From NCBI GenBank assembly GCA_965247145.1, contig CBDFGH010000008.1, forward strand, positions 32,345 to 96,344: a stretch of DNA of 64,000 nucleotides, in the 5' to 3' direction. Position 1 is the first letter of the stretch. The number at the start of each line of letters is the position of its first letter. Below the pieces are notes generated by a model. The model searched no databases. It was given only the letters and a program-made list of their open reading frames with translations, and was not told the DNA's origin. Positions 17,754 through 60,663 of this stretch are shown one piece after another. The DNA is from Rickettsiales bacterium. GTDB lineage: Bacteria; Pseudomonadota; Alphaproteobacteria; Rickettsiales; JAIXRX01. The translations under genes were made by a program, and so were the position numbers.

Positions 17754-17908
17754 GGCACGCCCCGGCGGCTTCGCCCGCCGGGATCGAGACCAAAAGCACA
17801 AGATCCAAAAGCATCAACACCGGTGGGCATTGCTACACCGGGGCAGGATTCTATTGTCCGACAGCGTGCACCCGCGCCGGGCCGAACAGAAAACGGGAGA
17901 GCAACATC

Positions 17909-18388
17909 ATGTTGCAGGACGCCTCACTGCGCGAGTTGAACGCGCGCGCGCTTGCCGGATTGGCCATGGCCGATCCGCGCGCGATCGACGTCTCCCCCGA
18001 GGAGGCCTGGGCTGTGCTCGGTCAGGAAGAAACCGCCCAACTGATCGATGTGCGTACCACGGCGGAATGGAGTTTCGTCGGCGTGCCGCATTTGCGCGAT
18101 CTGGGTAAAAACTTCACCGCTCTTTCTTGGCGTAATTTTCCGGATTTCGCGCCCAACGAACAATTCGCCGCGCGCCTCTGTGCCCAATTCCCCGATAAAT
18201 CCACGCCGCTCTTTTTCCTGTGCCGCAGCGGCGGTCGCTCGCTCGATGCGGCCCTCGCCATGCGCGAGATGGGGTATGCAGCGTCTTTCAATATCGCCGG
18301 TGGTTTCGAAGGCGACCTCGATCAGGCACGCCACCGAAGTCAGCGCAATGGATGGAAAGCCGCCGGGCTTCCCTGGGAACAAAGTTAA
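17909..18388 (+). CDS. Rhodanese-like sulfurtransferase
   Basis: LIDVRT.AEW.FVG, CRSGGRS active loop, GGFEG, GWKAAGLPW. Confidence 0.92.
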   Translation: MLQDASLRELNARALAGLAMADPRAIDVSPEEAWAVLGQEETAQLIDVRTTAEWSFVGVPHLRDLGKNFTALSWRNFPDFAPNEQFAARLCAQFPDKSTPLFFLCRSGGRSLDAALAMREMGYAASFNIAGGFEGDLDQARHRSQRNGWKAAGLPWEQS

Positions 18389-18498
18389 GCACCGAAGACC
18401 CAAAGCACCGAAGACCGACAAACGAACCGCAGAGTTCCGAAGAACAAAACCAAAAAGACCATCGCATCCAACATCCGTAGCAGGGGAAATTTCCGCAT

Positions 18499-43100: not shown

Positions 43101-43558
43101 TTTTGGGGTGCGGGCTTGACAGCTTCCTCCATCACCTCCGGCGTCGCCGCATCTTCCGTGCCCAGCAGATCGACGCCGGTCAATCGTCCACTCACGAAAC
43201 TGCGCGTGCGGTAGCTTTTATCCAACGTCAACGTCACCGTTCTGCCGTCTGCGCCCAGGGAGGCGGAACGCACCACATTCGGCAGGCGCGTCAGCAGGCG
43301 GCTGAAATCGGGATCGCTCGCTCGGCGGTCGAAGGTGACGACGAGCTTGTTGCCCTCCATGCGCGTTTGCAGCGTGGTGGGCTGCGCCCATTCGAAGGTG
43401 ATGCGGGTGAAGTCGCGCACCACCTGCCCGCTGGCGATCGGGGCGGCGAACGCGCCGAAGGCGATCAGGGAAGCGCCCAGCGCAGACACACCGAGACAGG
43501 CGGCCAGAGCACCGCCCGCCGTCGCTGATGGCCGTAAACCTCGCCAGACCTTCGCCAT
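40178..43558 (-). CDS. Large exported TPR-like protein with Pro/Ala/Lys-rich linker
   Basis: Signal or TM segment, N-domain FTRITFEW, low-complexity linker, helical C-terminus (LADRLAEVDLLDRAAALLDHQVQFRL); start uncertain. Confidence 0.8.
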   Translation of the reverse strand: MAKVWRGLRPSATAGGALAACLGVSALGASLIAFGAFAAPIASGQVVRDFTRITFEWAQPTTLQTRMEGNKLVVTFDRRASDPDFSRLLTRLPNVVRSASLGADGRTVTLTLDKSYRTRSFVSGRLTGVDLLGTEDAATPEVMEEAVKPAPQKLETKTSEAKTAAKKPAPASKPPAVKKAVAKAAEPKPPVPSIPSKARIITAPPSTPVPKATAAPVPKVAVTEEKQAAAAPPPVTSIPAIPVSAASAAKPDAPKPDAPKPDIVAPEAAIVPPPRATEPQEPLSPPPPAQEAASVSAVPKPAAVPVPQENKPILGAVPVSAPTTQPQRIVLQRSTAPALAIQTQAAEDQVVLRFPFVERTAAAAFARGDALWLVFDRPAALNVDSIKDATLVRGLEQLAHPSAIVLRLSTLGLKGVRLQRAPEGQGWDAVLSPRLGLPSEPLIVQPKTDTPLKPYLLVNALETSPPVDVTDPVVGDVLRIAPSYAAGQGIAPGRDYVEMELLPSAQGVVIASHGPDIGVVTQRNGLRLSAEAGLRLSPGLPSVPAGKEETAETAHSSLFAREEMAAEHGQTLRSMEQDLFPLLLNPGALADAARLRLAQAYLAEGLSAEALGMLSTLRDANLDGYIRERASAYAGLANFLMGRMPEVARDFGTPELQGNEEMDAWRTLLAELTGQSDELIDYPRFNARYLRQYPKEVRRRIGVVTIDRLVARNRYNEALVALDGMKKDGLDRDDAPTAHAMDFFTGEILARTGYPDKAEKLWKNLNEDVDDRYWRARANFARINLNLAQKKITEEEAMPQLDALRILWRDDPLELQVLKQLGEMQIRTGKYRDGLRTLKEITTAYPNTEDAFKAAQSMAETFVMLFNGDGAKTMKPLDALTLYYEFKDLTPVEAEGDLMIRNLADRLAEVDLLDRAAALLDHQVQFRLQGEERSRVGARLALIYLLDRKPQQALDVMERTGFGGNSVELQQKRDLLTARALADLKEGARAVKLLEDDGSLDANLLKLDIAWDIGDWKNVGAVAEGILSQRPDPTKALTEPEMGALLKLALAYSFEKDTDQLHYLRDYFGPLVKENPHKDLFAFLTSDTPVTPQSIAQMAQTITQMQSFLSRYRSQVKEEGLSEAVK

Positions 43559-43664
43559 TCGTGGTGCGATGCCCCTCCCTGCCGGTCGATGATTGCGTCC
43601 GGTCGTGTTGGGCGGCATTATGGAGGCATTGCGCCCATGCGTCAAACCCGAGCAAGGCAAAGCC

Positions 43665-44162
43665 ATGCATACCCCATCCCCGATCCGCATTTCTATGCAT
43701 GCCTGTGCCTCCGAAGCCGCGCTTGGCGAAGAAGCGGCACGGTTGGCCGCGCTGATGCGGCGTGGCGATTGCATCCGTCTGGAAGGAAATCTGGGTGCGG
43801 GTAAAACCAGTTTCGCGCGGGCCGCTATCCAGTCCCTTTCCTGCGAAACGGTGGAGGTGATAAGCCCCACTTTCACCCTGGTGCAATCATATCCCGTGCA
43901 GATGGAAGGCAAACCCATGCTGCTTTCCCACGCCGATCTCTACCGCATCGAAAATGCGGCGGATCTGGAAGAGATCGGGATCCACGAACTGCACCTGCAA
44001 GGCGCGTTGCTGGTGGAATGGCCGCAGATCGCCGCCGATTGGCTGCCGCCGGAGGCGCTTACGCTGCGTTTGTCGCCCGGAGACGGGCCCGGGGCACGCC
44101 TGCTGGAATATCTCGCCACGCCGCAGAGTGGTTGGCAGGCGCGACTGCGGCATGCTAGCTGA
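43665..44162 (+). CDS. tsaE: tRNA t6A biosynthesis ATPase
   Basis: LEGNLGAGKTSFARA, SPTFTLVQSY, HADLYR, VEWP. Confidence 0.95.
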   Translation: MHTPSPIRISMHACASEAALGEEAARLAALMRRGDCIRLEGNLGAGKTSFARAAIQSLSCETVEVISPTFTLVQSYPVQMEGKPMLLSHADLYRIENAADLEEIGIHELHLQGALLVEWPQIAADWLPPEALTLRLSPGDGPGARLLEYLATPQSGWQARLRHAS

Positions 44163-46026: not shown

Positions 46027-49000
46027 TCAACCACCCTTCAGCTTGCATGCTTTGTCGTCTGGATGTTTCACGCAATAAGACGTGGTTTTATCATCGTTCC
46101 CCGAAGACGAGCAAACCGGTGATTTGGGATTGTCTTTGCAGAAACTCTCGCTGCCGCCGCCGGTGGGATTACACATTTCCTTGGTCGGATTGGTCTTGCA
46201 ATATTCCGCCTCGGCGTTGCATCCCTCGCCGCTCGGGTCGAGGGTGCAGCGGTCCAATTCGGTCGTGATGCATTTCTGATAGACCTCCTGCGGCTTCGAG
46301 AAATCACCCTTGCAAACCTCTGCGGCATCGCAATGCGGTTCTTTGGGTTGGGAAGCGCAGAAATCCTTGTCGTCCTTACAAGAGTCGCTGTTGGGGTCCA
46401 GTCCGCACGGGCCAAGCTGGTCGCGGATGCATTCGTTTGAACCGGAATCGACGATACAAGTGAGAGGCTGCTGCGTAAGGCCAGGATTTTCTGGGTCGAT
46501 GCCTGCTCCTTTGTAGAGTTTGTCGCGCGTGCTGCCATCCGGCACGATAGACTTATCGGGGCATTGATGGTCATCCTGGCCTGAACAGACATCGTTCACA
46601 TCGTCCATCAGTTTGTCCACCTCTTCCTGACGGGAACCGGGCATGCTGTCTTTGTCGTAGGCTTTGCGATATTGATCCATGCCATCATAGGGTTGGGAGG
46701 GAACGTCCGGTTTCTCTTCCTTCCCAGGCGTAGGCTTTGCGTCCAAATTTTGGTCGGGCAGCACATTGATCGCGGGAATGAGCTGTTTGGAGATATCGAT
46801 CGGCAGCACGTCGCCTGCGGAGGGCACGTAGCCTTCCACCGGTGTGAAGGTGTAATATTCGCCCGTTACGTTGCCGTCCTGGTCTTTCTTCTGGTCTTTA
46901 TGCAGCAGGTAATGCATCGGATCGGCCTTCTTTTCTCCCTTGATGACAAACAATTTATCATCCGCCGTGATTTTGATTCGGGCATAGCTGTCAAATTTGA
47001 TCGGCTCCTTGCATTGGCTGCGGAAAGAGACGCCATAGGGGAACGTCAATATACGCTCTTTGCCGGCGGGCACCTGCAACAAGGTATCCGGCGGGGTCAA
47101 CACAAGCACATCACTGTCAAAAATAGGTCTTTCCGAGCTGAGTCCCTGCTCGTATTTGGCTTTCAAATCGTCGTCGCCTACCAGATGATTAGTCAGCGTT
47201 ACCTTACCGTCCTTCACTTTCACGGCATTGTCCATGCAGGTTTTGCCCACGTCGTAGCAAGGCGGGAAGATGATATTGGCAACATCGTTCAACAAACCGC
47301 GAATGGCAAAACCGGGATATTTGGAAATAGCGATATCCGGCACACTTTGCGCCGCGTCCGGCTGGATGTCGCGCCCGTTGGGCGGCGTGCGGTTCAAAGT
47401 GGGTGGCATATGCAATTCCACATCCCCCACCACCACAGCCTGGGGACCTGTAGTGCGCTGACTAATAATCGGGCGCGGCAAGCCATCTTTCGGATTGAAG
47501 CCGGAGGTAGCAACCTGGCTGAGTTGAGTACCCAAGGCTGCGGCGCCGCCCGCATACAATGTATCCAACTGTCCTCGTGCACTCATACCCGCGAGATTGT
47601 CCGGGGCGCGCATCAGATCATCCAACGTTGGATTATCCCGAAGGCCTTCGAAACTATACAGTGCGCCCAAGGCATTGAACCCGGGCTTGATGGTCGATCC
47701 GCTATGGACCGGATCGAAATTCACGCCGATATTCACATCCACCGTCAGGCTGAGCAGCTGGCTGCTCTTGCTGCGCGGCACACCCACGAAGCCGATGTAT
47801 GGCTTATTGGCCATGCCGGGGAACATCGTCAGTAGCCGTGCAACCTGCGGATCCGGCCGCAGGCGGGCCAATACACTGAGAGGCAGATGCGAGATCTGGG
47901 AACCGAGGCTGGTGGTTTCATAACCGGGTCCGCGCACGTCGGCCACCACATCATATTTTTCCGCGTTCTTCATGGTATTGCGTGAGGCTGGCGGCGTGTC
48001 ATATCCGGCGGAAAGACAATCCATCACATCCTTCTCCGGAACCAGATGCATTTCATTGGGAGAAACGTTCGCGATATCCACGCGCTGATTGTTATTCGCT
48101 GCGGCGTTCGGGCGCACCATGCAGCCGCCGCGATAATCGTCGCCGTAAGGACGATAGATGCGCACCATGTTCCAGAGATCGAGCCCCTTGGCAGTAACGC
48201 GCGGGTCCTCGAAGCTGCATTCGCGCAGCATCGGGTCTGCCTGACAGCGGGTGTTGTAGACCGCGAAGCTGGTGTGATTCTGTACACTCTGCTGCACCAA
48301 TGCGTTGGTTTCCGAGTCAGGGAAATTGCAATTGGCACCACCCGCGCCGATGCAGCTTTGGAGACGCTTCAACGCAGTGAGCCTTGCAGCGGGTTTGGCG
48401 TTGTTGGGGTCTTCCAACTGAGCGGCATGACGGTAGATGGTCCGGTGACGGGCATTGCCCGCCAACTCGGTAATGCCGCAGGAATCGGGGTATTGCCCCG
48501 CATTGGTCTGCAGCACATGCACCCAATAGCGGTCGCGGCCCGCGGCGTTGGGCTGTTCACCCGGCTCGGCGGGATTGGCCGCGAGATAACTGCTGTCGTT
48601 AAAAGTTTCCGCTACGTAGCCGATGAAGGGTACATATTCGTCCGCAGCCATTTTGAAATTGTCGATGGCTTTTCCATCGCCGATGGGTTGCCGGGTTACA
48701 CGATCGGGATAGGCCACATTGTAATCCGAAGGATCGAGATAGACGATGTCTCCCGGCTGTGCATTGTCCAGGCCGCGCAGCACGGTGGCGGAAGCGCCCG
48801 GACGTTTGGCGAAATTGGGGAAGCGTGTATCGGAAGGAATATCCCAACGGTATATCTTCGAGTTGCTGTCGGGGATGTTGGCGATCTGCTTATCGTCCAT
48901 CTTCGGATCCCACAGGAACCCGCGATGCGACAAGGGCCATGTCACGGTGTGATCCTTGACGCCATTATTGAGCAACACGCTCCCACCGGCCATTTTCAGC

Positions 49001-52000
49001 ACCACGTCTTCCATCATATTCACTTTGTGCAGCTTTTCGAACTGCCCGATGCAATTGAGACCGGTATTGCGGTATGTGCGCGCCTGATACAGCTTCAATT
49101 CGGTCCAACTGGTCAGGGGGTGGACGGTGTTGTCGTTCGGCAGATGCACGCAAGCATCCCCCTTGAAGCGCGTTTTTCCATTGTCCAATGGATGGAAGGG
49201 ATCGTTATGGATGTTGTTCGTTTTATCCAATGCGGGGTCCAGACTTTTCGCTGTGGGATCCTCCTTGCCGAGATAACCCCAGCCGCCGATGCGGCATGAA
49301 CGCTCCGCCGTACCGACACCCACCACACGCACGCGCGCACCCAGATCGCTGTTCAGATCGATGTTCTTGCCGTTGATTGCACCCCACTCAGTGCCGGTAT
49401 CCCACAGTCGCATGTAAGGGCGGTGATCACCGAAATATTCTTCGAAGGTCGTACCTTCGGCAAACATGTTTCGATCTCTTTCCGCCTTGGTATAGGGCGC
49501 CAGGCGTAGCAGATTGATCGGCGCGAGCGGCTTGTTGATCTCGTTGCAGCAATCTTTGATGCTGACCTTACAGGTGTCCTTGCAGAAATCTTTATCGCGG
49601 TCCGGCATGCTACCCGAGGTGCTGCAGGGCGGGAATTTATTGCGTCCCTGCTTGGTGCGATCGGATTTACAGAAACTGACCGTGCCGATCTTGGCCACGC
49701 CCTGCCCCATTGAAGAATCCTTGCCTTTCTCGAACACGGCCTTGAACCCTTTGCGCAGTACATAGCGCGCGGGGAAGCAGAGTTGCGGGAATTTCCCGCC
49801 AAACCAGCTGCCGCAGATTTTCTTCGCCATGGGCCGCAGCGCGTCCTTCCAGAGTGAGCGATATTCGGATTTGAACTGGCTGTAGGCCTCTGAGAAATCG
49901 TAGGTATCGAAGCTTTGGAATATTTCGCGAATCTGGTTCATGTCCACCTGCCCATCCTCGAAAGGATCAAGCGTGCCCGTCAGGAAGCGGAACCACATGG
50001 TGTCGTAGGGATGGCCGGAGAACGATCCGTCCGAACCGCGCTTGCCTTCTTTCAGCAGCAGGATGAGTGCGCGGATCGGATCGATGATGCTTCGGCACTT
50101 ATTTTTACTGTTTCTTGCTTTACAATCTTTGTCCGAACTTTTCTTCGCCACCATCCATAGATTCTTGGCCTCGTTGTGCCCCATGGGATCGAAGAAAATG
50201 ATGTCCATGATGCCGACCACGATGTCGCCGCAGACCGTGATACCCCAGCATGCCGCTTTCGCAATGTAATAGAGCACAGCGCGAATGACTTCGATGATGA
50301 TCGAAATAATCGGCACGCCCTTGACCTCCGACCACAGACAATCGCGGTTGGTGGTGATGCGGCACATGATGCAATTGTCGAAGCGCTTTTCGCGGAAGCG
50401 GAGAATATCCACCGGGGTTGCGGCACAATTCACCGGCTGACCCCAAACGGGTATGCCGTTCATACCGGGAATCCACCAGAAATTTTTCGATCCGCAATAA
50501 TCCGGTTTATTGTTCAAACTCATCGAAACGCAAACATCGTATTTGTCGCGGTCGTTGGTTTCGAAATCCCAGCGCGGCGTGAAGGGATGCGTCACATCCT
50601 TGATCGACTCATAGGGGTTGGTGATCAGATCGGCGATTTGCGGGCGGAAATTACGCTCGCGGAAATTCAGCACGCCGCGCGGCTGGGGTAGATATTTCCC
50701 CGTTTCGTCTTCGTAATAATGGTCGATCCCCGGCGCCACGATCTGCGCATTGGGGTTGTGAATGTATTTGGTGATGGTCGTATCGTTCGGATTGGCGAGA
50801 TACTTTGCGAATTCCGCATTATATTCGTCCATGTAGCTTTCATCCCAATGATTGATCGTCGGGAAATAGATGGCGGGGAAGTAATTATTGACCATCGTGC
50901 CGTACCAGGCGCGTTCCAGATAACGCCACGCGTCATATTCGTGCCGCACGATACCGGTGGATTTGCCTTTGCTGTCGAGCTTGCATTTGCCGGTACTGGA
51001 ATCCCAATCGGACGGATGCTTGCACCGGTATTCGTCCACCATGCATTTGCCGTTGGCGTCTTTCATGCAATCATTGGGCGGAATGAGGCTGAGCGGCTGG
51101 CAATTGGTAGGCGTCATCGAGGGGCGCGACTGGGTGTCTGCGATATAGGTCGGATACAGGCTTTGGCTGGTGATGTATTGATTGGTGCAGCTGTCCAGCA
51201 TCAGACGCGTAAAGAAAGGTGGATTGCAGCCGTGATAGCTGCAGCCCGCTTTGGCAGGGCGGATCGGGCTGCAGGTAATGGCGTTCTTGATGGTGGGAAT
51301 CAGGATCGTCGTCAAAATATTCTGGCGCACATCCTGCGGCAATTTGAAATCGGTCGATTCGTCGCGGGGTGCAGTGTCGGTATCTTCGCGCAATTCGTCG
51401 ACCTCGTCGGTCAGCCACCCGTAGGTGGCAGGCGTGCGTGGGCAGGTGGAGCGCTCCAACCAGCCTTCGTTCAGGTTCAGCGGCGAAACACGCGGGGTGG
51501 TCATCCGCACCAATGTCTTTTCCGGCACCGACCCCGAAACACCGGCGGTCACCGGTTCGAAATTGAAACCGAAACCCAACACGGCGGTTTGCAATTGATA
51601 GCTCGCCTGCAGCAAGGGCGTGCCCAGGCGCTCAGCCGCACTGATATCGCCCGGTATCATTCCGATAGGGCGGAAATTGGTGTAGCGATTGTCACGCGTG
51701 AAACTGTTGATCATCGCATAAAGATTGGATTGCGAGATCGGCCAGACGATGGGCGGAATGCAGTAATAGATGCTGTAGTTCGGAGCGCGCAAGCACATCT
51801 GCTTGCGTAGATCATCGGCCACAGTGAAGAGTCCGGCAAATTTCTCCACCAGCTTGTCCATTTTATCGCGAAGCTTCGGCACCGCGTTAACCTTGGTGAT
51901 AAGGGCCGGAATCTGACCCGCGACTTTTTGGAAATTGAACAAAGCGGCGGGATTGAAATTCACCGAAATGTTCACCGAGGGTGCTACCGCGCCATCCAAT

Positions 52001-54336
52001 GCACGCATGGCGCCGATGGCGGTATTGAGCGGCCCTTTCATGGCCTCCGCTTTGTCCATCAGGGTGCGCATGGCAGGCGGAATGGGCAATACGGAAGGGG
52101 GACAGGTTGCGAGATTCTGTAGGCAGGCTATCGCCGCGCCATGACCCTGGGCGATTACCGTTTGCATGCGGCCCATCGAATCGAAGAAATGCTGGAATTG
52201 TTCCCTCGTGGGAGGGGGGGCTTGATTGTCTTTTCCCGTCAGATCCTTGCCATCGTTTTTGGCACGGGTCGCCTTTTTGAGCTTGTCCATTACATCCATT
52301 GCGCCGTTGAGGCTGCTGAGGTCGAGATTTTTCCCGCTGGCACTATTCAATGCCTTTGCATTTTCCAGCGCGTTGCTGGTCTCCGCCATACCGGAAGCGG
52401 CGCTCTTGGCGTCGTCCATTTTCTGCGCCATGTCGATGAGTTGTTTCAACGATTGCAGCGCACTTACGGCGCTGCGCACGGTCTGTGCAAAAACCACGAT
52501 CTTTCGGATCGTTTTCGCCGCCTCGTAGATTTTGATGAATAATTGAACAAGACCGGTGAAACCGTTCATGCCCAGCATGCCACTGAGAGAGTCGGTAATG
52601 TCGTCCTTGCTTAAACCGTTCTCCCCCGCCGATTCCAATGTGCTGAGCACATCGCCCAGCATGCCGCCGGTGCATGTGCCCGTGACGGAGGAAATGAGGC
52701 TTTTCACCTTGTCGGCGCTGCCATCCAGGTTGTTGGGAATGCTTGCCAAGGCACCCACGGCATTTCTCATGCCGTTTAGCTGGATGTTATAACCGCTCAA
52801 TTGATTGATGGCGGATTTGACTTTCGGGTCGTCGAGCATTTCGACTTCGGATACCGATCGCGTCATCCCGGTCGAAAGGATGCGGTGTTGCTGCATCAGA
52901 TCCTCAATGGCGGAAATCTCAACCGGGTCGGTTGCCTCCGCGGCCATCGCATTCAAATCCGCCCCCAGCGATTTGAAGTTGTCCACATCCGCCTTCGAGG
53001 CCCGGATGCTGGAAATGGCTTGGTCCAAATTCCCAGAGACGATGGCGCTGGCACCGGCCGCCGCATCCGACATCAGACCCACATTGGCCGCCACACTGCC
53101 AAGATCGCCAATCTTACCGATGACCCCATTGACGTCTTTCATCGTTTCGTCGAATTTATCGAAATCATCCGTTTCGCTGGAATCGACATTCAGACAGGCA
53201 TTGTCGTTGCGAGTGACCCCGGTATTGCTCGGCAACGGACATTGGGCCGCCTGGGCGGGCATCAGATCGTCCGAACTGGGTTTCTCCACCGCTTCCGACG
53301 GTTGGGGACCCGCGGCGTTGCCCAGCCTGGGCTCAGGTTGAAGGGTCGATTCGTCGTCACCGGTGCTGGGGGCGGTAATGCTGCCCTGCAAAGGGTCGGT
53401 ATCTGGCGGGTTTTGGGCCGCAGGGCCAAATTTGTTCGGATCTTCGAAACCGGGGTCGTCTGCCGGTTTCTTCTTATTTACCGGCGGTTCTATGCTGGGA
53501 TCGGGCACTAGGCCCTGCATGACCGATAAGGCAGGCGCGGCCATACCCAGCATACCGCCCGTGCCGGAAACACTGGCTGTTTTCAGCAGAGGATCGTTGG
53601 ATTTTTCGCTGTCTTCACGCGGCAGATGCAGATTGTGCAAAATGCGCACCACGCCTTCCGGACCCCCGAAATTTTTTAATGTCACACCTGCTTCGGGGAT
53701 GCGATCGAGGGCTTGGCGGATAAAGGCCTGATCGTTCAGCATCGGGCGCAATTCATCGATGGAAGAACCCACCGCCTGCATGACCGCCTCTAATTCATAA
53801 TAATCCATGCCGCTGATCGAGCCGACCGCTTTCTGCAGCCGGTCCGGCCCCATTTCGGCCAATACTTTGGCCAGACGGCGCCCTTCCTTGGGCAATTCGC
53901 TGATACTCAGATTCGGCACCGTATGCAACGCCATCACCGAATGCAGGGTGGATTCGACATCCGCGATCGCTTTCTCCGACATGCCGCGCATGTGCCGCGG
54001 CAGCATGTTCCAATTACCTTCCAGATACGGCTTCAATTCCGGCTTGGTCTTCAGCATGTCGTTCCAGAAGCCTTTGATATCGGATTCGGTCATGGGTCGG
54101 TCGGTTTTGGGATCGATCATGTAATGATCGCCTTCACGGAAAAATTCCTTGAACTCTTCCATGCTGATGACAGGCTTGCTGCCGTCATATTTCGCATAGT
54201 CCATCGGTGTCAGCGCGCGGGCGGCGGTGGCGGATAAACACAGCATTCCGAGCATTGCCCAACACGCCCAAAGGCGACCATGTCGCCATGCGCCTACTCT
54301 ACCACGAAGGAATTGGGGAGGATGGAATTGGGACAC
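46027..54336 (-). CDS. Giant (2769 aa) secreted cysteine-rich protein of unknown function
   Basis: Uninterrupted 8.3 kb ORF; signal peptide ending ATAARA; many Cys pairs; C-terminal CxxxPxxxxC repeats. Confidence 0.9.
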   Translation of the reverse strand: MSQFHPPQFLRGRVGAWRHGRLWACWAMLGMLCLSATAARALTPMDYAKYDGSKPVISMEEFKEFFREGDHYMIDPKTDRPMTESDIKGFWNDMLKTKPELKPYLEGNWNMLPRHMRGMSEKAIADVESTLHSVMALHTVPNLSISELPKEGRRLAKVLAEMGPDRLQKAVGSISGMDYYELEAVMQAVGSSIDELRPMLNDQAFIRQALDRIPEAGVTLKNFGGPEGVVRILHNLHLPREDSEKSNDPLLKTASVSGTGGMLGMAAPALSVMQGLVPDPSIEPPVNKKKPADDPGFEDPNKFGPAAQNPPDTDPLQGSITAPSTGDDESTLQPEPRLGNAAGPQPSEAVEKPSSDDLMPAQAAQCPLPSNTGVTRNDNACLNVDSSETDDFDKFDETMKDVNGVIGKIGDLGSVAANVGLMSDAAAGASAIVSGNLDQAISSIRASKADVDNFKSLGADLNAMAAEATDPVEISAIEDLMQQHRILSTGMTRSVSEVEMLDDPKVKSAINQLSGYNIQLNGMRNAVGALASIPNNLDGSADKVKSLISSVTGTCTGGMLGDVLSTLESAGENGLSKDDITDSLSGMLGMNGFTGLVQLFIKIYEAAKTIRKIVVFAQTVRSAVSALQSLKQLIDMAQKMDDAKSAASGMAETSNALENAKALNSASGKNLDLSSLNGAMDVMDKLKKATRAKNDGKDLTGKDNQAPPPTREQFQHFFDSMGRMQTVIAQGHGAAIACLQNLATCPPSVLPIPPAMRTLMDKAEAMKGPLNTAIGAMRALDGAVAPSVNISVNFNPAALFNFQKVAGQIPALITKVNAVPKLRDKMDKLVEKFAGLFTVADDLRKQMCLRAPNYSIYYCIPPIVWPISQSNLYAMINSFTRDNRYTNFRPIGMIPGDISAAERLGTPLLQASYQLQTAVLGFGFNFEPVTAGVSGSVPEKTLVRMTTPRVSPLNLNEGWLERSTCPRTPATYGWLTDEVDELREDTDTAPRDESTDFKLPQDVRQNILTTILIPTIKNAITCSPIRPAKAGCSYHGCNPPFFTRLMLDSCTNQYITSQSLYPTYIADTQSRPSMTPTNCQPLSLIPPNDCMKDANGKCMVDEYRCKHPSDWDSSTGKCKLDSKGKSTGIVRHEYDAWRYLERAWYGTMVNNYFPAIYFPTINHWDESYMDEYNAEFAKYLANPNDTTITKYIHNPNAQIVAPGIDHYYEDETGKYLPQPRGVLNFRERNFRPQIADLITNPYESIKDVTHPFTPRWDFETNDRDKYDVCVSMSLNNKPDYCGSKNFWWIPGMNGIPVWGQPVNCAATPVDILRFREKRFDNCIMCRITTNRDCLWSEVKGVPIISIIIEVIRAVLYYIAKAACWGITVCGDIVVGIMDIIFFDPMGHNEAKNLWMVAKKSSDKDCKARNSKNKCRSIIDPIRALILLLKEGKRGSDGSFSGHPYDTMWFRFLTGTLDPFEDGQVDMNQIREIFQSFDTYDFSEAYSQFKSEYRSLWKDALRPMAKKICGSWFGGKFPQLCFPARYVLRKGFKAVFEKGKDSSMGQGVAKIGTVSFCKSDRTKQGRNKFPPCSTSGSMPDRDKDFCKDTCKVSIKDCCNEINKPLAPINLLRLAPYTKAERDRNMFAEGTTFEEYFGDHRPYMRLWDTGTEWGAINGKNIDLNSDLGARVRVVGVGTAERSCRIGGWGYLGKEDPTAKSLDPALDKTNNIHNDPFHPLDNGKTRFKGDACVHLPNDNTVHPLTSWTELKLYQARTYRNTGLNCIGQFEKLHKVNMMEDVVLKMAGGSVLLNNGVKDHTVTWPLSHRGFLWDPKMDDKQIANIPDSNSKIYRWDIPSDTRFPNFAKRPGASATVLRGLDNAQPGDIVYLDPSDYNVAYPDRVTRQPIGDGKAIDNFKMAADEYVPFIGYVAETFNDSSYLAANPAEPGEQPNAAGRDRYWVHVLQTNAGQYPDSCGITELAGNARHRTIYRHAAQLEDPNNAKPAARLTALKRLQSCIGAGGANCNFPDSETNALVQQSVQNHTSFAVYNTRCQADPMLRECSFEDPRVTAKGLDLWNMVRIYRPYGDDYRGGCMVRPNAAANNNQRVDIANVSPNEMHLVPEKDVMDCLSAGYDTPPASRNTMKNAEKYDVVADVRGPGYETTSLGSQISHLPLSVLARLRPDPQVARLLTMFPGMANKPYIGFVGVPRSKSSQLLSLTVDVNIGVNFDPVHSGSTIKPGFNALGALYSFEGLRDNPTLDDLMRAPDNLAGMSARGQLDTLYAGGAAALGTQLSQVATSGFNPKDGLPRPIISQRTTGPQAVVVGDVELHMPPTLNRTPPNGRDIQPDAAQSVPDIAISKYPGFAIRGLLNDVANIIFPPCYDVGKTCMDNAVKVKDGKVTLTNHLVGDDDLKAKYEQGLSSERPIFDSDVLVLTPPDTLLQVPAGKERILTFPYGVSFRSQCKEPIKFDSYARIKITADDKLFVIKGEKKADPMHYLLHKDQKKDQDGNVTGEYYTFTPVEGYVPSAGDVLPIDISKQLIPAINVLPDQNLDAKPTPGKEEKPDVPSQPYDGMDQYRKAYDKDSMPGSRQEEVDKLMDDVNDVCSGQDDHQCPDKSIVPDGSTRDKLYKGAGIDPENPGLTQQPLTCIVDSGSNECIRDQLGPCGLDPNSDSCKDDKDFCASQPKEPHCDAAEVCKGDFSKPQEVYQKCITTELDRCTLDPSGEGCNAEAEYCKTNPTKEMCNPTGGGSESFCKDNPKSPVCSSSGNDDKTTSYCVKHPDDKACKLKGG

Positions 54337-54523
54337 GCGAATCCGTGCTTTCTTCTCTATTGTTTTTTTTACCGCAAAGAACTTTGGACTTGCGGAGGGG
54401 GCATGAGACGTTTTTCTGCGCGGGCTTCTTGTCTAGACCTATGGTATCAGTCTAATATGTCTCTTTCATGACGACAACCATTCATCGGCGGATAGATTTT
54501 TTATCCGCGCTTCTCGGGTTTTC

Positions 54524-55321
54524 ATGCCACAACCCAATCGTAACAATTCGACCGAAGCGCCAGATTTTGCCCAGGCGGGGGAAGTCGACAGCGGCGTGTA
54601 TTTTCAACGTGCCCGCGCCTGGTCGCGCATGTTGTACGATTTTCCCATCGTCGAGCGCAGCTATGCGTTGCTGGCGCTGTTTATCATATGGCTGACGCTG
54701 CTGTTGGCGATCATCATTTTCTTTTCATTCGATCCGCTGGTGCGGCCCGTGCGCGTACCGTTCGAAAACCCCAACAGTGGCGAAGATATACCGCGTATCG
54801 TCACCCTCTCGGGCCGCGACCGCGCACCGCTGCAGAAATCCGTTGCACGCTACATCGCCCAGCATTACGCCGTGGCACGGGAGAATTATCGTTACGATCG
54901 CGAGACCATCGATTCTCAATATCGTCTCGTTTACAATCTGAGCGCACCCGATGTTTTCGATGCCTACCGCAGCACTCTGCAACCGAGCAACCCACAAAGC
55001 CCGCTGGCGCGCTTTGAGCGTCATACGACATTGCAGGCGCTTTATCCCGTCACCGAACTCGAGGTTTCCGCACCGTCCCGTGGGCTGGTGCGCGGTCAGG
55101 CACGCGTGACCTACACAGAACGTATCAACGGTCCGGGCGGCTACAAACAGGCGCGGCGCAGCGCGACCTTCGAATTTACCATGAGCGAAATATCCGTTCA
55201 CAAAGAGGATAATCGTGTCTACCAATACAATGACCAAACCGGGCAGGATGAAAAGCTGACCGGCGCGATTAATTTCCGCGTGACCCGCTATCAATCCCCA
55301 ACCGAGTCGCCCCGCCCATGA
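54524..55321 (+). CDS. virB8: VirB8-family T4SS protein (RvhB8-like, atypical)
   Basis: YFQRARAW N-terminus, single TM, YAVARENYRY, VYNLSAPDVFDAY, C-terminal FRVTRY; coupled to virB9. Confidence 0.8.
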   Translation: MPQPNRNNSTEAPDFAQAGEVDSGVYFQRARAWSRMLYDFPIVERSYALLALFIIWLTLLLAIIIFFSFDPLVRPVRVPFENPNSGEDIPRIVTLSGRDRAPLQKSVARYIAQHYAVARENYRYDRETIDSQYRLVYNLSAPDVFDAYRSTLQPSNPQSPLARFERHTTLQALYPVTELEVSAPSRGLVRGQARVTYTERINGPGGYKQARRSATFEFTMSEISVHKEDNRVYQYNDQTGQDEKLTGAINFRVTRYQSPTESPRP

Positions 55322-56271
55322 TCCTTCATTCCATGATCTCAGCGTTCCGCTCCCTGCCCTCCATGTTGCGTCCGCTCGCGGTGGCTTTGCTGCTGACCCC
55401 CGCACTGGCAGGCCCTGCTTTCGCACTGCGCGACAGCCGGCCGCTGGCCACCGACCAGCGCATTCACACCATGATGTACAGTGCGGATGAGGTCTATAAA
55501 TTCACCGGCCATTATGGCTTTCAATCCACGATCGAATTCGCTGCCGACGAAGAAATCCAGACTATCTCCATGGGCGATTCGGTAGCATGGTTGTTGGAAC
55601 CTTCGGGCAATCGCATTTTCCTGAAGCCACTGGAACAAAACGCCACCACCAACATGACGGTGCTGACCAACAAGCGCAGCTATCTCTTTGAGCTGCATGC
55701 GCGCGAAGCCAGCGGCATCAGCGATCCGCAGCTCGTTTTCGTCCTACGCTTCATGTACCCCTCCGACAGCAACGATTATATTTCCGGGCTGGGATCGATC
55801 GACAATACCGTGCCGGACCTGGACGACCCGGAAGAACGCGGCAAGCTGAACTTCAATTATACTCTGCGCGGCAAGGAAACCATCGCACCGCTGCGGGTGT
55901 TCGACGATGGGGAATTCACTTTCTTCGAATTCCGCAACAAAAACGCCGATGTGCCCGCCTTTTTTCTGGTCGACAGCACCGGCAAGGAAGCCCTCATCAA
56001 CTACCGCACGCGGGGAGACTACATCGTGGTCGAGCGCGTTTGGGGCGTCTATACCCTGCGTCACGGCTCGGATCTGGTCTGCGTGTATAACGAATCTTGG
56101 AACGGCGGTGCGGGCCGCAACGTAGCCGCCGGAGATAAAGTTTCCGCCGCTCCTGTCTCTGCCCGATCCGCTGCGATGAGCGAATCTAGAGGCGACCTAA
56201 AAAACGAGCAGTTCATCACGCCGACCGGTGCGGGCGCCGCAGCGGCGAGCAACGCACCGGTCGGCCGTTAG
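55318..56271 (+). CDS. virB9: VirB9/TrbG-family T4SS outer-membrane core protein
   Basis: Signal peptide, DQRIHTMMY, ISMGDSVAW, RIFLKP, TNMTVLTNKRSYLFEL, NFNY, VFDDGEFTFFEF, INYR. Confidence 0.93.
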   Translation: MILHSMISAFRSLPSMLRPLAVALLLTPALAGPAFALRDSRPLATDQRIHTMMYSADEVYKFTGHYGFQSTIEFAADEEIQTISMGDSVAWLLEPSGNRIFLKPLEQNATTNMTVLTNKRSYLFELHAREASGISDPQLVFVLRFMYPSDSNDYISGLGSIDNTVPDLDDPEERGKLNFNYTLRGKETIAPLRVFDDGEFTFFEFRNKNADVPAFFLVDSTGKEALINYRTRGDYIVVERVWGVYTLRHGSDLVCVYNESWNGGAGRNVAAGDKVSAAPVSARSAAMSESRGDLKNEQFITPTGAGAAAASNAPVGR

Positions 56272-56277
56272 CCTGTC

Positions 56278-57048
56278 TTAGTTGCGGCGCACACAGCGTA
56301 TTGGGAAACTGTTACCGCGACCGTAATTCTCATATGTGCCGTAACGCATCTGAATGCGCATAACGTCCGAGTCGTTCAGCTCGCTGGAGGTCCAATACGA
56401 AGTGCTGTCGCTTTGAACGAACCCATAGGCAGCTCCCAGTTCATATTGATTGTTGAACAACACACCCATTTCGTACGAAGTGGGTAGATACCAGTCTGTA
56501 TGACCGCCGTAATTTAGGTTTTTGCAATAGAAGTGCGCGGGATAGTTGCTGTTGGCCAAGCTGCGTGTGCCGGGATAACCGTAGCGCATGATATTGCCCA
56601 TGTTTGGATTGCCACCGCCGGATTGCCATTGCATCGAAGGGTCGGTGCCGGCGCCGGTAGGAGAAGCGCAACTGGGTGCGGCGGCGGTTCCGGTGCAGCC
56701 CGCCGGGCTCACTACCAAATTGCCGTCTCCCGCAAAAATTCCGCCGCCGCAATCGCTGCCGATGACGCCGCTACAGAGGGTTACGGTGTAGGTGCCGTCG
56801 GCGCCGATCAGTGGCACGCCATACATGCGGCTGTCGGTGGTGCCGGGCGCAGCGATCACCGTGGTGGTCGTCGTGGTCGTGCCCGTGCCGCCCGGTTCCT
56901 TCCAATCGGTGCCGTTGCAGAAATAAAGTTTTTTCAGCGCGCTGTCATACCGCAACGATCCTTCCGTGCCGGACGGCGAAGCGCAGGCGGCTTGTGCCTC
57001 GATGGGCAATGCAAACATTGCCAGAACGAGAAAAATAAATCCTTTCAT
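56278..57048 (-). CDS. Secreted DUF1566 (Lcl C-terminal)-like protein
   Basis: Signal peptide; YCKNL..GG..DWYLPT.YE...YWTSSE...IRCVRR signature. Confidence 0.82.
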   Translation of the reverse strand: MKGFIFLVLAMFALPIEAQAACASPSGTEGSLRYDSALKKLYFCNGTDWKEPGGTGTTTTTTTVIAAPGTTDSRMYGVPLIGADGTYTVTLCSGVIGSDCGGGIFAGDGNLVVSPAGCTGTAAAPSCASPTGAGTDPSMQWQSGGGNPNMGNIMRYGYPGTRSLANSNYPAHFYCKNLNYGGHTDWYLPTSYEMGVLFNNQYELGAAYGFVQSDSTSYWTSSELNDSDVMRIQMRYGTYENYGRGNSFPIRCVRRN

Positions 57049-57061
57049 GGGGTCTTCCTCT

Positions 57062-57862
57062 CTAATTGCGACGTACGCAACGGATGGCGTAATTTTGGTC
57101 TTTGGTGTCGATATTGGATTGCCCCCCTGTCGAGGTCGGATCTCCAGGCCGTACGAGGTAATGGTATGCCGTTACATGGTGGAAACGCTGCCCGTTATAT
57201 GCTTCGCTCGCCGACATATAATTGATGTTGTAGCCATTGTAATATGACCCCCCGATATCGGAAAGCGACTGCACGAACAATTCCGTTTCGTACAAGGTCG
57301 GCACATACCAATCGCTGTAGGTCACACCGCCCACGCTGAAAGACAGATTCCGGCAATATTGGAAAGCGGGATAGTTGCTGTTGTTGTTCGATTGGTTGGT
57401 CGCATAGCCATAGCGTTGACTCGACATGGTGGTAGGGCTGTTGGAGGTTTCGTAGCGGTTGTAATAAGTGTCCCGCCCCGCATAGGGTGCCTGAGTAACG
57501 CCGCCCACCGTTTCGGTCGGGCAGGTCGTGCCACTGCAGCCCGCACCCGTGGCCACCAGATTGCCGTCCCCGATGTAGAATCCTCCCCCGCACCGGCTGC
57601 CGATGGCGCCGCCGCAGAGATTGACCACATTGCTGCCCCCTGCCCCGACAACGGGAATTCCGTTCAATAAATTCGGCGCTCCGGCAGTATCGACGACCCA
57701 GTTGGTGCCATCGCACTTATACACTCTTCGTTCGGCGCTGACATATTTGTAACTGCCCAAAACGCCAGCAGGGCTTGAGCATGCGGCCCAGGCGGCTTCG
57801 GAAAAACCCATGCACAGAAATGCCATGGCGAGAGATAAACGAAACGTGAGTTGATTCATCAT
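57062..57862 (-). CDS. Secreted DUF1566 (Lcl C-terminal)-like protein, paralog of 56278-57048
   Basis: Signal peptide; YCRNL...DWYVPTLYE...YMSASE...IRCVRRN. Confidence 0.8.
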   Translation of the reverse strand: MMNQLTFRLSLAMAFLCMGFSEAAWAACSSPAGVLGSYKYVSAERRVYKCDGTNWVVDTAGAPNLLNGIPVVGAGGSNVVNLCGGAIGSRCGGGFYIGDGNLVATGAGCSGTTCPTETVGGVTQAPYAGRDTYYNRYETSNSPTTMSSQRYGYATNQSNNNSNYPAFQYCRNLSFSVGGVTYSDWYVPTLYETELFVQSLSDIGGSYYNGYNINYMSASEAYNGQRFHHVTAYHYLVRPGDPTSTGGQSNIDTKDQNYAIRCVRRN

Positions 57863-57868: not shown

Positions 57869-59632
57869 CTAATTGGCAATGCACCCCATCCATCCGCTGG
57901 GATCGGCACTCATGCGGTAGATATGGCTGGTACTGTTGAAGATATCGCCCCAGTTGCTGCCGTTTGCGCAGCTCTGCGACTCGGGTGGGCGCTGCCCCGC
58001 ACAACTTGCTGGACATGCTTGCGTTGTGGCGGGTTTGTCGCCGGGGACACAGGTCGCGCCACTGGGGCAATAGACAGTGCGCGTCTGCACCGAACCGGTC
58101 GCGTTGCAGCTGACGGAGCGGGTTTGGAAGCCGCCGCCGCAGGTATTGTCGCAGGTCGTCCAGCTGCCTGCATCCCAGAAAGGTAGAGGGGCGCAGCTGC
58201 CCCAAGGACCGGCCACCCAGCCACCGCAGGGCTGCGCGTTGCAGCTTTGCGATTGCGCGGGCGAAGAGCCGCAACTGCTGACGGTGCAGCTTTCGCTGGA
58301 ACTGGGTTTCACTCCATCGCACACGCCGCTGGCGCAGGTGGGGGTGCGGGTATGAATACCGGTACGGCTGCGGCAGGAAGCGGTGCGGTATTGCGTACCG
58401 CTGCCACAGGTAGCGCTGCACTCGCCCCAATCCGAAAGCTCCCAGTCTCCCACGGTGATGGTAACGCCGGCACTGTCTTTACACGCACTCCATGCGCCCG
58501 GATCCCAGGCATTGGCACATGTGCCTAGATTGCAGGCTTTCTGCGAAGGCGGCGGGGTGGTGGTACAGCCGGTGAAGGGCCGCGAGGTGGGCGGTTTGGG
58601 CGCCAGACAATCGACACCGACCGTCTGCGAACAGCTCGTTGCACCCGCCACGTTCACACAATCTACGTTGAGGCTGAGCGTGCCGCTTGCGGTGGAATTG
58701 CAACTGACCGTGCGGCTTTGCACGCCGTCTCCACAGCTTTGGGAACACGCGCTGTAACCCATATCCGGCGTGCCGTTGTTGTATGTGGTTCCCGCCGCGC
58801 CGTTGATCGCGTTGATGCTCCATTCGCCGCCGGGCGTGGTTCCGGTAGTCGGCGTCACCGACCATCGGCATTCCTGGCTTTTGGATTTGGCATTCTGAAA
58901 GGAGCGACCCGCCAGAATGAACGCGGCATTGCATTTACGCCCGACATTGGCGGCGTAACCGCGTGTGGTCGCATCGCGGCATGCGCCGGCGGTTACGCCA
59001 TTGCCTTCCTCGACCACCATCTGCCCGTTGCTGGGCGAGCCGTCATCGATCATGCGGTCGATGCGCTCGGCTTCTTCCGGTGTGAGCGGCCCACTGCCGC
59101 TGGTTTCGGTAAAAGAACCGTCCGCTGCGGTGATTTGAATCAAGTGGATCACGGCAACCACGCGGTCGGGTTTACGGCCTTCGATGGTCAGGGCCGCACC
59201 GGAACCCGCCGCGCTGGGCGGATAGACTTTGCCGATATTTCGGCTATTGGCGCTGAGCGTGAATTTTATCAGGCCAGCACGGGAAAGATGTTCCCAGAAC
59301 AGGCGCTGCTCGAGCAAAGCCTGCGCCGGGTCGTCGCTTGCCAGATCGATGCGGCCATTGCCATTGCCGTTGCAGCCGCTGCAGGCGAAAAGGCCGCTCG
59401 CATCCGAAGTATCGCCAGGGAAGGAATTGTAGCGCTCCTGATAAATCTGCACGGCGCGGCGCAGATCGGCCAATTCCTTAGCCACGTTGCGCAGCGCCGC
59501 GTCGCGCGTAAGGCTGCTGGCAGCCAGAGTTCCGGCCACGATGAAGCCGAAAATGGCCAACACCATGGCCATTTCTATGAGGGTGAAGCCGCGACGTTTT
59601 CGAACCGATGAGGGGTGGTGCGCTACGGACAT
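57869..59632 (-). CDS. Prepilin-type (type IV pilin/pseudopilin) protein with C-terminal thrombospondin type-1 repeats
   Basis: RKRRG|FTLIEMAMVL cleavage motif; pilin head (YNSFPGD, IDRMIDDG); WGECSATCGSGTQYR and WTTCDNTCGGGFQTR TSP1 motifs. Confidence 0.9.
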   Translation of the reverse strand: MSVAHHPSSVRKRRGFTLIEMAMVLAIFGFIVAGTLAASSLTRDAALRNVAKELADLRRAVQIYQERYNSFPGDTSDASGLFACSGCNGNGNGRIDLASDDPAQALLEQRLFWEHLSRAGLIKFTLSANSRNIGKVYPPSAAGSGAALTIEGRKPDRVVAVIHLIQITAADGSFTETSGSGPLTPEEAERIDRMIDDGSPSNGQMVVEEGNGVTAGACRDATTRGYAANVGRKCNAAFILAGRSFQNAKSKSQECRWSVTPTTGTTPGGEWSINAINGAAGTTYNNGTPDMGYSACSQSCGDGVQSRTVSCNSTASGTLSLNVDCVNVAGATSCSQTVGVDCLAPKPPTSRPFTGCTTTPPPSQKACNLGTCANAWDPGAWSACKDSAGVTITVGDWELSDWGECSATCGSGTQYRTASCRSRTGIHTRTPTCASGVCDGVKPSSSESCTVSSCGSSPAQSQSCNAQPCGGWVAGPWGSCAPLPFWDAGSWTTCDNTCGGGFQTRSVSCNATGSVQTRTVYCPSGATCVPGDKPATTQACPASCAGQRPPESQSCANGSNWGDIFNSTSHIYRMSADPSGWMGCIAN

Positions 59633-60663
59633 GTCGAACCATCCTTCCAATCGCCATCGCAGCAGATCAAGGTGGTGCCGGAAGTGCCTTTCGCTCGTGT
59701 ATCGCCGTGGCGTATGCCCCCCGCTGCCAAAGGAAGCGGATTGGTGCCGGTAAACTTGATGCGCTGCACGCAATTTTCCGGTTGGTTCTTCATGACTGTG
59801 GTTGCGCCCGAGGGCTCGTAGCCGCAACGTACAGGCGGCTGGCAATTTCTCTTTTCCACCAGTATCGGCACTACGACATCGTCGAATACGCCATCTTCGT
59901 TGTGCCAGTTGTCGGCGGTGTAGCGCTGCAGATCGCTGTCGAAATCGCAGTTGGTGGAATCGTAGCCGTTGGCGACGCAACTCTGCATGGTACCGTAAGA
60001 ACTGATGGCGCCGTTTTGGTTGGGCCCGGCACTGATGAGCAGGCCTACCGGGCGTTGCACACCGGCATTGAGCAGCGGCCAACCGCGCAGATCATTGGGC
60101 GTGGTGCTGCCCACGCTGTATATTTGGAACGGCGATCCGTAGGCGGTGGGCAGGACGGTGGGCGAAACACCGGCCGTGGTATTGGCCAATTGCGTATCCA
60201 TCACATAGACGATCTTATTTCCCCAGCCGTCCAGCATCGCGTCTTGCGGCAGGTTCAAGGCCATCACCGGCACGGCGCCTGCCACCACGGTACTGCCGGC
60301 ATTGCAGAATACGCCCTGGTAACTCTTGGTGGTGGGGTCGCAATTACCAGGAATGGCGGCTTTCCAGCAATCCAGCACTGGCTTTTGGAAAGCGGTGGCG
60401 GTGTAGGAACGGTCATAGCGTGCCGGGCATGGCAGAATGCGGTGCCCGACATCGTATTTGCTGTAATTCTGGATCGCCAGTTCGATCATGCGCAGCCGCA
60501 CCTGGGTCGTGCGCAGGCGTTTGCGCGACTCACTCGCTTCGTTGGGCAGAAGCAGCACCACCGCCGCACTCAGCACCAGCAGAATCGCGGCGATGGCGAT
60601 CAAGGTGAACCCCGCCTCCGAAGCATGCGAGCCGATGATGGGGCGCGGGGGCGCGGGGTGCAT
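59623..60663 (-). CDS. Prepilin-type minor pilin/pseudopilin lacking Glu5
   Basis: EAG|FTLIAIAAIL; LPCPA, GAVP...L.LP, DGWGNKIVY, LISAGPN, FDDVV. Confidence 0.87.
   Translation of the reverse strand: MHPAPPRPIIGSHASEAGFTLIAIAAILLVLSAAVVLLLPNEASESRKRLRTTQVRLRMIELAIQNYSKYDVGHRILPCPARYDRSYTATAFQKPVLDCWKAAIPGNCDPTTKSYQGVFCNAGSTVVAGAVPVMALNLPQDAMLDGWGNKIVYVMDTQLANTTAGVSPTVLPTAYGSPFQIYSVGSTTPNDLRGWPLLNAGVQRPVGLLISAGPNQNGAISSYGTMQSCVANGYDSTNCDFDSDLQRYTADNWHNEDGVFDDVVVPILVEKRNCQPPVRCGYEPSGATTVMKNQPENCVQRIKFTGTNPLPLAAGGIRHGDTRAKGTSGTTLICCDGDWKDGSTCP

Follow-up and report, generated by a model that had tools for sequence, protein, structure and literature searches.

A protein family with a degenerate-to-intact CHAP-like domain beside virB8-virB9 in Rickettsiales, a possible cell-wall accessory of rvh, a type IV secretion system

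TraG of pIP501 is a cell-wall hydrolase with a CHAP domain that belongs to a Gram-positive type IV secretion system (T4SS); the VirB1 of the S. suis T4SS (VirB1-89K) reportedly bears a CHAP domain as well, and lactococcal conjugation hydrolases are said to have been proposed as adhesins. CHAP-type wall proteins of T4SSs are, to our knowledge, confined to the conjugation systems of Gram-positive bacteria. In Rickettsiales, the rvh system is a P-type T4SS noted for its unexplained duplicates RvhB4-II, RvhB8-II and RvhB9-II. Previous work on PrgK, the wall enzyme of the pCF10 T4SS, describes a domain set of LytM (M23), SLT and CHAP, reports that the LytM and CHAP domains showed no hydrolytic activity, and reports binding of PrgK to the VirB8-like protein PrgL, which is thought to place PrgK at the channel (PMC11323569; this and the other publications cited here are drawn on in part). 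VirB1 of Agrobacterium-type T4SSs is reported to contact VirB8-VirB11 (PMC4676284). Here we describe a protein family encoded beside virB8 and virB9 in Rickettsiales, starting from a 64,000-nt stretch of DNA (the window; Rickettsiales bacterium, assembly GCA_965247145.1, contig CBDFGH010000008.1, positions 32,345 to 96,344 of the forward strand). The window holds a gene for a protein of 2769 amino acids (aa), P0001, and we see about an even chance that P0001 serves the rvh T4SS as a VirB1/PrgK-like accessory at the cell wall, probably without catalytic activity.

The gene is the longest open reading frame (ORF) in its region, with a GTG start that lies 187 bp from the start of a divergently oriented virB8, which in turn overlaps virB9 (Table 1); both size and spacing are as the preliminary description of the window had claimed. 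The family resembles PrgK of pCF10 in being T4SS-linked, apparently exported and equipped with a CHAP-type domain, and the PrgK trio of M23, SLT and CHAP also occurs in two relatives from one family of the order (f20). P0001 differs from PrgK, TraG and VirB1-89K in its Gram-negative P-type (rvh) setting, with no detectable sequence similarity; compared with PrgK-type proteins it is about three times longer, has a large body of unrecognised fold, and lacks SLT, M23 and the catalytic His. With VirB1 it would share a presumed role in making or holding a passage through peptidoglycan, whereas VirB1 is an SLT lytic transglycosylase and P0001 has no SLT domain.

Searches of Pfam, NCBIfam and PDB sequences with the whole of P0001 gave no match, and Pfam returned none even at E<=10. 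A word-indexed search of 4899 candidates recovered P0001 itself and three other proteins of 2721, 2570 and 1560 aa (53, 46 and 31% identity), and a pattern scan of species genomes found 37 loci in metagenome-assembled genomes (MAGs) labelled Alphaproteobacteria, Rickettsiales or Pseudomonadota, with three of the 37 in MAGs labelled Azospirillaceae or Azospirillum. Of 1.84 billion cluster representatives, 317 were matched at E<=0.001 by a profile of 38 core sequences, and these measure ~350 to 2850 aa; the 10 family clusters whose names were looked up were called "hypothetical protein" only. Most relatives measure 800-2000 aa, so that the word "giant" in the preliminary description suits the lineage of P0001 and not the family as a whole. 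Residues ~925-1340 and 1560-2130 of P0001 are common to other families of the order, the first 880 aa have a counterpart only in a homologue from the same family, and the insertion at aa 1340-1560 and the last 640 aa have none in any other ORF of the loci that we fetched; jackhmmer started from the C-terminus gave no match. Because the N-terminal region, the insertion and the C-terminal 640 aa are lineage-specific, the great length is a lineage trait. ESM Atlas searches with P0001 aa 1555-2135 and with residues 35-590 of a homologue gave no usable match. The family is undescribed, in that no account of it was found in the literature searched, though supplementary gene tables of rvh papers might list the gene.

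Within the order of the window, the family was present in 111 of 301 genomes (93 of the 242 good-quality ones), and presence was split sharply by family: four families, for example, had matches in 18/18, 22/24, 18/18 and 23/24 genomes, and four further ones, whose genomes are mostly smaller, had none (0/24, 0/24, 0/23, 0/23). The classical families f3, f4, f11, f13, f19, f22, f23 and f26 gave no match in the order sample. VirB9 was found in 299 of the same 301 genomes, usually twice. When the class was sampled, three of 401 genomes matched, namely the window's genome and two of the same order, and none of the 398 genomes from other orders did. The family therefore sits inside the rvh-bearing order.

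The one recognisable domain of the family lies in its conserved C-terminal part. An AlphaFold2 model of the P0001 core (aa 1030-2130, 38 sequences) was too poor, with a predicted local distance difference test score (pLDDT) of 57. A compact homologue of 812 aa from f9 (L128), with virB8-virB9 upstream, reached a pLDDT of 87.1 and a predicted template-modelling score of 0.90 from 105 aligned sequences. A comparison of this model with 48,161 chains listed 50 rows, of which 34 bear the names of cell-wall hydrolases or peptidases (CHAP, NlpC/P60, C39/C70, endolysin, autolysin, amidase and others). These all map to residues ~583-812 and align over some 90-115 residues; the best match listed was 5t1q (Z 4.9, root-mean-square deviation (rmsd) 3.0, 106 aligned). 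With the poorer model of P0001 itself, two CHAP chains matched at aa 1771-2064: 2k3a at Z 4.6 (rmsd 3.2, 101 aligned) and 5t1q at Z 4.5. The N-terminal ~550 residues of L128 are confidently folded, yet had no solved-structure match at Z>=5 in searches that barely probed this region. At the profile level, CHAP (PF05257) was the most frequent match of 102 signature-domain sequences (18/102, best E 4.6e-4), followed by a cysteine-proteinase-fold family (4/102); one full-length relative from f10 matched CHAP at 4.3e-5, and one full-length relative scored 24.4 bits with PF05257, for which the cut-off is 26. These weak structural matches suggest that the C-terminal domain has a papain fold of the CHAP/NlpC-P60 type.

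As P0001 has no profile match of its own, its membership in this domain family rests on the alignment. In CHAPK of the phage K endolysin LysK, the catalytic positions are Cys54, His117 and Glu134, with Asn136 at the oxyanion hole (PMC4126393), and the E-x-N spacing of the family equals that of CHAPK Glu134-Asn136. P0001 C1762 (G-L-N-C-I-G) stands in a column that is Cys in 101 of 102 sequences, and is equated with the catalytic Cys by motif and order. The His position, the first residue of the strand after G-D-I-V (His in 43/102), is taken by F1904, and the Glu position of x-E-x-N (Glu in 49/102) by Q1943; N1945 occupies the Asn position (Asn in 63 and Asp in 38 of 102). A complete C-H-E-N set was found in 35 of the 102 sequences, from families f2, f6, f7, f8, f10, f16, f17, f27, f30 and f34 and one member of f29, and degenerate sets were C-Y-A-N in f9, C-K-E-D in f12, C-Q-x-D in f18, C-F-D-N in f29 and C-F-Q-N in the window. 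Maximum-likelihood trees of the 102 signature-domain rows are unrooted; on the careful one, the label of intact or degenerate changed five times, versus a shuffled mean of 29, and P0001 grouped with the f29 C-F-D-N pair (support 99/96). The family is like CHAP (PF05257) in its weakly matched papain-type fold and in the Cys...His...Glu-x-Asn pattern of its intact members, and P0001 differs by the changes of His to Phe and Glu to Gln, by long insertions, by the absence of its own Pfam match and by the embedding of the domain in 2769 aa. Judged from these residues, an enzymatic role for P0001 is unlikely.

Relatives that carry additional domains connect the family with wall enzymes and with T4SS components. 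Pfam scans of 47 full-length relatives (20 + 27) showed that both f20 members carry SLT (6e-15; 7.3e-5) and three M23 stretches (1.7e-46; 6.7e-41) in frame with a signature domain that keeps Cys and His (C-H-D-N, C-H-D-D), and both genes adjoin virB8-virB9; SLT was found in these two of the 47 only. Each of the two loci (L115 in genome G025, L116 in G059) has one stop codon (TAA; TGA) inside the signature-domain match; the ORFs used end there, and the domain may be truncated in them. One f8 member (L124:4590-10502:-, G094) has a TrbC/VirB2 pilin domain (9.4e-12) at aa 511-583 of 1970. This protein bears a signal peptide and ends in an intact C-H-E-N CHAP-like domain, and would be an odd pilin-hydrolase fusion if it is one gene. 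Another f8 ORF has M23 (1.8e-10), and a third f8 protein has a sub-threshold glucosaminidase match (1.2e-3). The other 41 of the 47 gave nothing, or coiled-coil-type or unrelated matches. In one f18 protein of the lpxB type (L084:8459-15694:+, G303), we noted two stretches resembling the FCCH domain of ubiquitin-activating enzyme E1 (PF16190, E 1.9e-13).

For gene order, the surroundings of the best match were fetched for 107 genomes; we called the ORFs of these loci ourselves (longest first, no overlaps), labelled them by iterative profile searches seeded by genes of the window, and counted a locus as assessable upstream when at least 2 kb was available (n=83). In 52 of the 83 loci, from 12 of 16 families, at least one of virB8 and virB9 was found within the four ORFs upstream, on the opposite strand, so that homologues do co-localise with these genes, a possibility that the preliminary description had raised. 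Upstream virB genes were absent in f6 (0/1), f8 (0/3) and f10 (0/2), and from 4/16 loci in f9 and 5/13 in f16. On the other side, murU/amgK/tsaE followed downstream in 56 of 88 assessable loci and 10 of 15 families. The adjacency to virB8/virB9 was seen also in families that lost the murU side (f2, f17, f27, f30 and most of f16). In a quick tree, rows of the lpxB type (f18, see below) formed one well-supported clade, and each of the other major clades included virB-adjacent rows. Most simply, the order of virB9-virB8, the gene, and murU-amgK-tsaE would be old, with a few later breaks. This synteny suggests a functional link and is no proof of one, as unrelated housekeeping genes hold their place about as well.

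The genome of the window (2.36 Mb, 11 contigs) has further vir genes. Contig C10 carries a virB2-virB4-virB6-virB8-virB9-virB10-virD4 cluster, and contig C6 a second virB4 and two virB6; the pair beside the giant gene, called isolated in the preliminary description, is therefore isolated within the window and not in the genome. The rvh hallmarks are duplicated VirB4, VirB8 and VirB9 and several copies of VirB6 (PMC11077975), and the copy numbers here (two each of VirB4, VirB8 and VirB9, three of VirB6) agree with them. The window VirB8 matches PF04335 with E 5e-10 and 40 bits, versus 132 bits for the C10 copy, whereas the window VirB9 matches PF03524 with E 1e-61 and TIGR02781 with 235.8 bits (cut-off 217.7), and the C10 VirB9 match is split in two pieces in a 403-aa frame. 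In Rickettsia, RvhB8-II and RvhB9-I are encoded in one operon, and RvhB8-I and RvhB9-II beside rvhB10, rvhB11 and rvhD4 (PMC4676284). The window pair, a divergent VirB8 with a canonical VirB9, resembles the first of these, and the C10 cluster, with a canonical VirB8 and a divergent VirB9 next to virB10 and virD4, resembles the arrangement described for R. typhi in the same source. We infer from this operon pattern, and not from sequence comparison with the named Rickettsia proteins, that the window pair is of the RvhB8-II and RvhB9-I type. One difference is that no homologue of the giant gene was found in the classical families. Three SLT matches in the genome (C1:407167, C11:36804, C8:6816) all lie outside its three T4SS loci. 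On contig C1, which is not part of the window, a 382-aa open frame holds three TrbC/VirB2 pilin domains in tandem (17733-18512; E 2.8e-14, 5.6e-13 and 2.2e-9); these are separate from the single virB2 that adjoins virB4 on C10.

The link to an rvh-type T4SS, which the preliminary description had proposed, is upheld by the virB8-virB9 adjacency, by the fusions to SLT/M23 and to VirB2, and by the restriction of the family to an order with near-universal VirB9. We propose the following mechanism. The gene would encode a Sec-exported protein whose conserved core defines a family confined, in the genomes searched, to the rvh-carrying order. The hallmark of the family would be the C-terminal papain-fold domain, preceded in the subgroup of the window by the body of unrecognised fold, and the family would correspond, in the rvh system, to the wall enzymes of other T4SSs (VirB1 in Gram-negative, PrgK, TraG and VirB1-89K in Gram-positive bacteria). 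Once exported to the periplasm, the protein might be recruited to the machine by the adjoining divergent VirB8 paralogue, as PrgL brings PrgK, and at the channel it would cut or hold peptidoglycan where the wall is crossed. The recognisable domain is CHAP-like and so points to peptidoglycan. In P0001 itself the catalytic His and Glu are gone and large regions have been added, and the protein therefore probably binds instead of cutting, as is reported for the inactive CHAP and LytM domains of PrgK. With its additional parts (the 840-aa N-terminal region, the hairpin and the 640-aa Cys-loop tail), it would act as a scaffold or contact element. The data establish the family and its distribution, the gene order, the CHAP-like domain with its residue pattern, and the fusions; export, location, binding to VirB8 and to peptidoglycan, and any adhesive role are inferred.

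Several observations weigh against this reading. For the fold, Foldseek returned nothing at E<=0.001 for either the P0001 core model or the L128 model, no chain reached Z>=5 with L128, and the profiles of the core and of the signature domain had 0 matches among PDB sequences. P0001 does not reach the curated threshold of PF05257 and has neither His nor Glu. For the link to the T4SS, 190 of the 301 genomes of the order have no family match though 299 have VirB9, from which it follows that the T4SS does not need the family protein. In all 15 assessable f18 loci, the gene stands on the same strand behind lpxI-lpxB, with which a bamA-skp-lpxD-fabZ-lpxA-lpxI-lpxB row ends, and VirB9 is located elsewhere, with two or more matches each, in all five f18-type genomes checked. 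The neighbours murU, amgK and tsaE, which have no known T4SS role, keep their place too, and synteny alone is for this reason weak evidence. Finally, related loci are not independent observations, and the ORF calls were our own.

Some of these points are what one would expect of a protein that serves the envelope in general, or the upkeep of peptidoglycan, in free-living Rickettsiales-like bacteria, has no functional tie to the T4SS and owes its place beside virB8-virB9 to inherited gene order. The f18 arrangement after an envelope operon, the peptidoglycan-recycling genes murU and amgK downstream in most loci and the many genomes with VirB9 and without the family favour such a protein; we nevertheless hold it to be unlikely, since the virB8/virB9 adjacency extends over 12 of 16 families and includes those that lost the murU side, since relatives are fused to SLT and M23 and, in one case, to VirB2, and since the family was not found in the 398 other alphaproteobacterial genomes. 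A similarly low probability goes to an exported effector, toxin or adhesin that acts on rival bacteria or hosts, is released through or beside rvh, and uses the CHAP-like domain on foreign walls. Sec-type signal peptides are unusual for cytoplasmic substrates of the T4SS coupling protein, no immunity-like gene follows the giant gene in the window, the catalytic His and Glu are lost in P0001, and the downstream partner gene of other families (see below) accompanies degenerate and intact catalytic sets alike. It would suit an effector that basal, probably free-living Rickettsiales have been proposed to kill rival (congener) microbes by rvh (PMC11077975), that type VI amidase effectors turn up in the fold comparison (Tse1 at Z 3.5, Tae3 at Z 2.6), that the order's small-genome families gave no match, and that many Cys residues and a hydrophobic hairpin are suited to an extracellular, membrane-active protein.

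The preliminary description had drawn an analogy with TraN, TraU and TraH of F-type T4SSs, in which P0001 would be a mating-pair stabiliser. The likeness consists of general traits: these are large or Cys-rich envelope proteins encoded with T4SS genes, and P0001 is large, Cys-rich, apparently exported and located beside T4SS genes. No sequence or fold similarity was found, and the system here is P-type rvh. Neither P0001 nor P0005, a long homologue, matched any Pfam family at E<=10, and P0006 and P0007 matched none of the three; no TraN, TraU or TraH chain was among the fold rows listed, with the N-terminal body barely probed, and Foldseek returned nothing. As the recognisable domain is CHAP-like instead, we abandon the analogy as very improbable.

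If P0001 is a cell-wall accessory of rvh, a CHAP-type T4SS wall protein would exist in a Gram-negative P-type system. The family, large and unnamed, adjoins rvhB8-II/rvhB9-I in the majority of the order's environmental families, and the classical families gave no match; its CHAP-type domain is intact in some lineages and degenerate in others, which makes it a candidate cell-wall or contact accessory of the ancestral rvh machine. It thus bears on how rvh worked before Rickettsiales turned intracellular, and on the duplicate parts of the machine. A bolder scenario, which we regard as a long shot, is that the family is the lost partner of the Rvh-II paralogues: RvhB8-II would recruit the CHAP giant to form a wall-spanning or surface contact structure for an rvh machine that free-living Rickettsiales would aim at other microbes. 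In the lineage of the window the enzyme would have become a pure binding scaffold with a pilin-like membrane hairpin, and the module would have been dropped once the order became intracellular.

The features of P0001 and its surroundings are given in Table 1. The whole protein has 68 Cys and 31 Trp. Read by eye, its N-terminus has a basic and then a hydrophobic stretch, with A-R-A preceding L42, in keeping with the signal peptide described earlier, and an A-x-A site lies at the equivalent place in both long homologues, P0005 and P0006. The Ala/Ser/Met-rich character of the N-terminal third is borne out by composition, and all the quoted motifs of the Cys/Trp-rich core are found in the translation. 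Only one strongly hydrophobic stretch was seen in P0001 (aa 1333-1384, nt 50185-50319), where the preliminary description had it (about 50185-50318), and the Cys-repeat tail is likewise present, with 16 Cys in the final 170 aa arranged as repeated C-x8-C loops. We considered whether the hairpin is a VirB2-like pilin and rejected this, as TrbC had no match (E<=1) within the giant gene when the genome was searched in six frames, and BLASTP found no similarity to the VirB2-bearing relative. A shared promoter for the giant gene and virB8, which had also been proposed, was dropped after a consensus scan found no site within the 187-bp gap; overall, sites were fewer than in shuffles.

Table 1. The giant gene, its parts and the adjoining virB genes, in window positions
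Feature	Coordinates	Strand	Basis
Giant ORF, P0001	46027..54336	-	ORF list, translation, homologues
Signal-peptide-like N-terminus, aa 1-41	54214..54336	-	By eye; P0005 and P0006 have A-x-A at the equivalent place
Lineage-specific N-terminal region, aa 42-880, Ala/Ser/Met-rich	51697..54213	-	Composition; among all locus ORFs, common only to the same-family homologue (L009/L075)
Family core part 1, aa ~925-1340 (HPFTPRWDF, PVDILRFR..C..CR)	50317..51564	-	jackhmmer blocks; aligns with the confidently folded N-terminal body of the compact homologue
Hydrophobic helical hairpin, aa 1340-1384	50185..50319	-	Hydropathy; helices in the P0001 core model; of four aligned, only P0001, P0005 and P0006 have the hairpin
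Lineage-specific insertion carrying the hairpin, aa 1340-1560	49657..50319	-	No match in other locus ORFs; the family profile has a gap here
Family core part 2, aa 1560-1729 (Cys cluster, RPYMRLWDTG, GVGT)	49150..49659	-	Family-profile blocks
Degenerate CHAP/NlpC-P60-like signature domain, aa 1730-2078	48103..49149	-	Alignment, column counts, fold matches of the homologue and of its own model, PF05257 in 18/102 members
Lineage-specific C-terminal region, aa 2130-2769, last ~170 aa with C-x8-C repeats	46030..47949	-	No match in other locus ORFs; P0005 and P0006 have it too
Divergent intergenic region, 187 bp	54337..54523	.	ORF boundaries
Divergent VirB8 paralogue, probably RvhB8-II type	54524..55321	+	PF04335, 40 bits versus 132 bits for the C10 copy; operon pattern (PMC4676284, drawn on in part)
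Canonical VirB9, probably RvhB9-I type	55318..56271	+	PF03524, E 1e-61; TIGR02781 above its cut-off

Between murU and the flagellar genes, the preliminary description had further placed an inserted island of roughly 15 kb, made up of the gene and its neighbours. The GC content of the giant gene is 0.555, the 8th percentile of 8.3-kb segments of the genome (mean 0.594, sd 0.029), and its GC content at third codon positions (GC3) is 0.68, versus 0.65-0.72 for virB8, virB9, murU and amgK. Because of these values and of the shared order of homologue, murU and amgK in 10 of 15 families, there is no sign of a recent insertion, and we rejected an island of recent horizontal transfer on GC3 and synteny.

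In f9, f12, f29 and f34, a conserved partner gene lies directly 3' of the homologue (loci L076-L136, for example L128:4907-6268:- and L083:14382-16226:+). Its 39 ORFs encode 278-673 aa and begin -48 to +71 nt from the stop of the homologue; the two copies viewed (L128, L083) have a signal-peptide-like start, three copies scanned had no Pfam match, and the window holds no counterpart. We considered whether the C-terminal 640 aa of P0001 are a fused copy of this gene and rejected the idea, as a hidden Markov model of the partner misses P0001, P0005 and P0006 and jackhmmer from the C-terminus finds nothing.

Two further loci of the window attracted our attention. Thrombospondin type 1 repeats are best known from animals, and a prepilin-type protein encoded at 57869-60082 (-) carries three stretches of them (PF19030, E 3.9e-19); its N-methylation motif lies at aa 161-185 of the ORF, so that the true start is probably further in, and two genes with an Lcl_C domain come after it (56278-57048 and 57062-57862). 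At 40178-43918 (-), a protein of 1246 aa is encoded for which no Pfam family exceeded its threshold; most loci of the order keep it next to tsaE-amgK-murU, with tblastn E values down to 1e-158.

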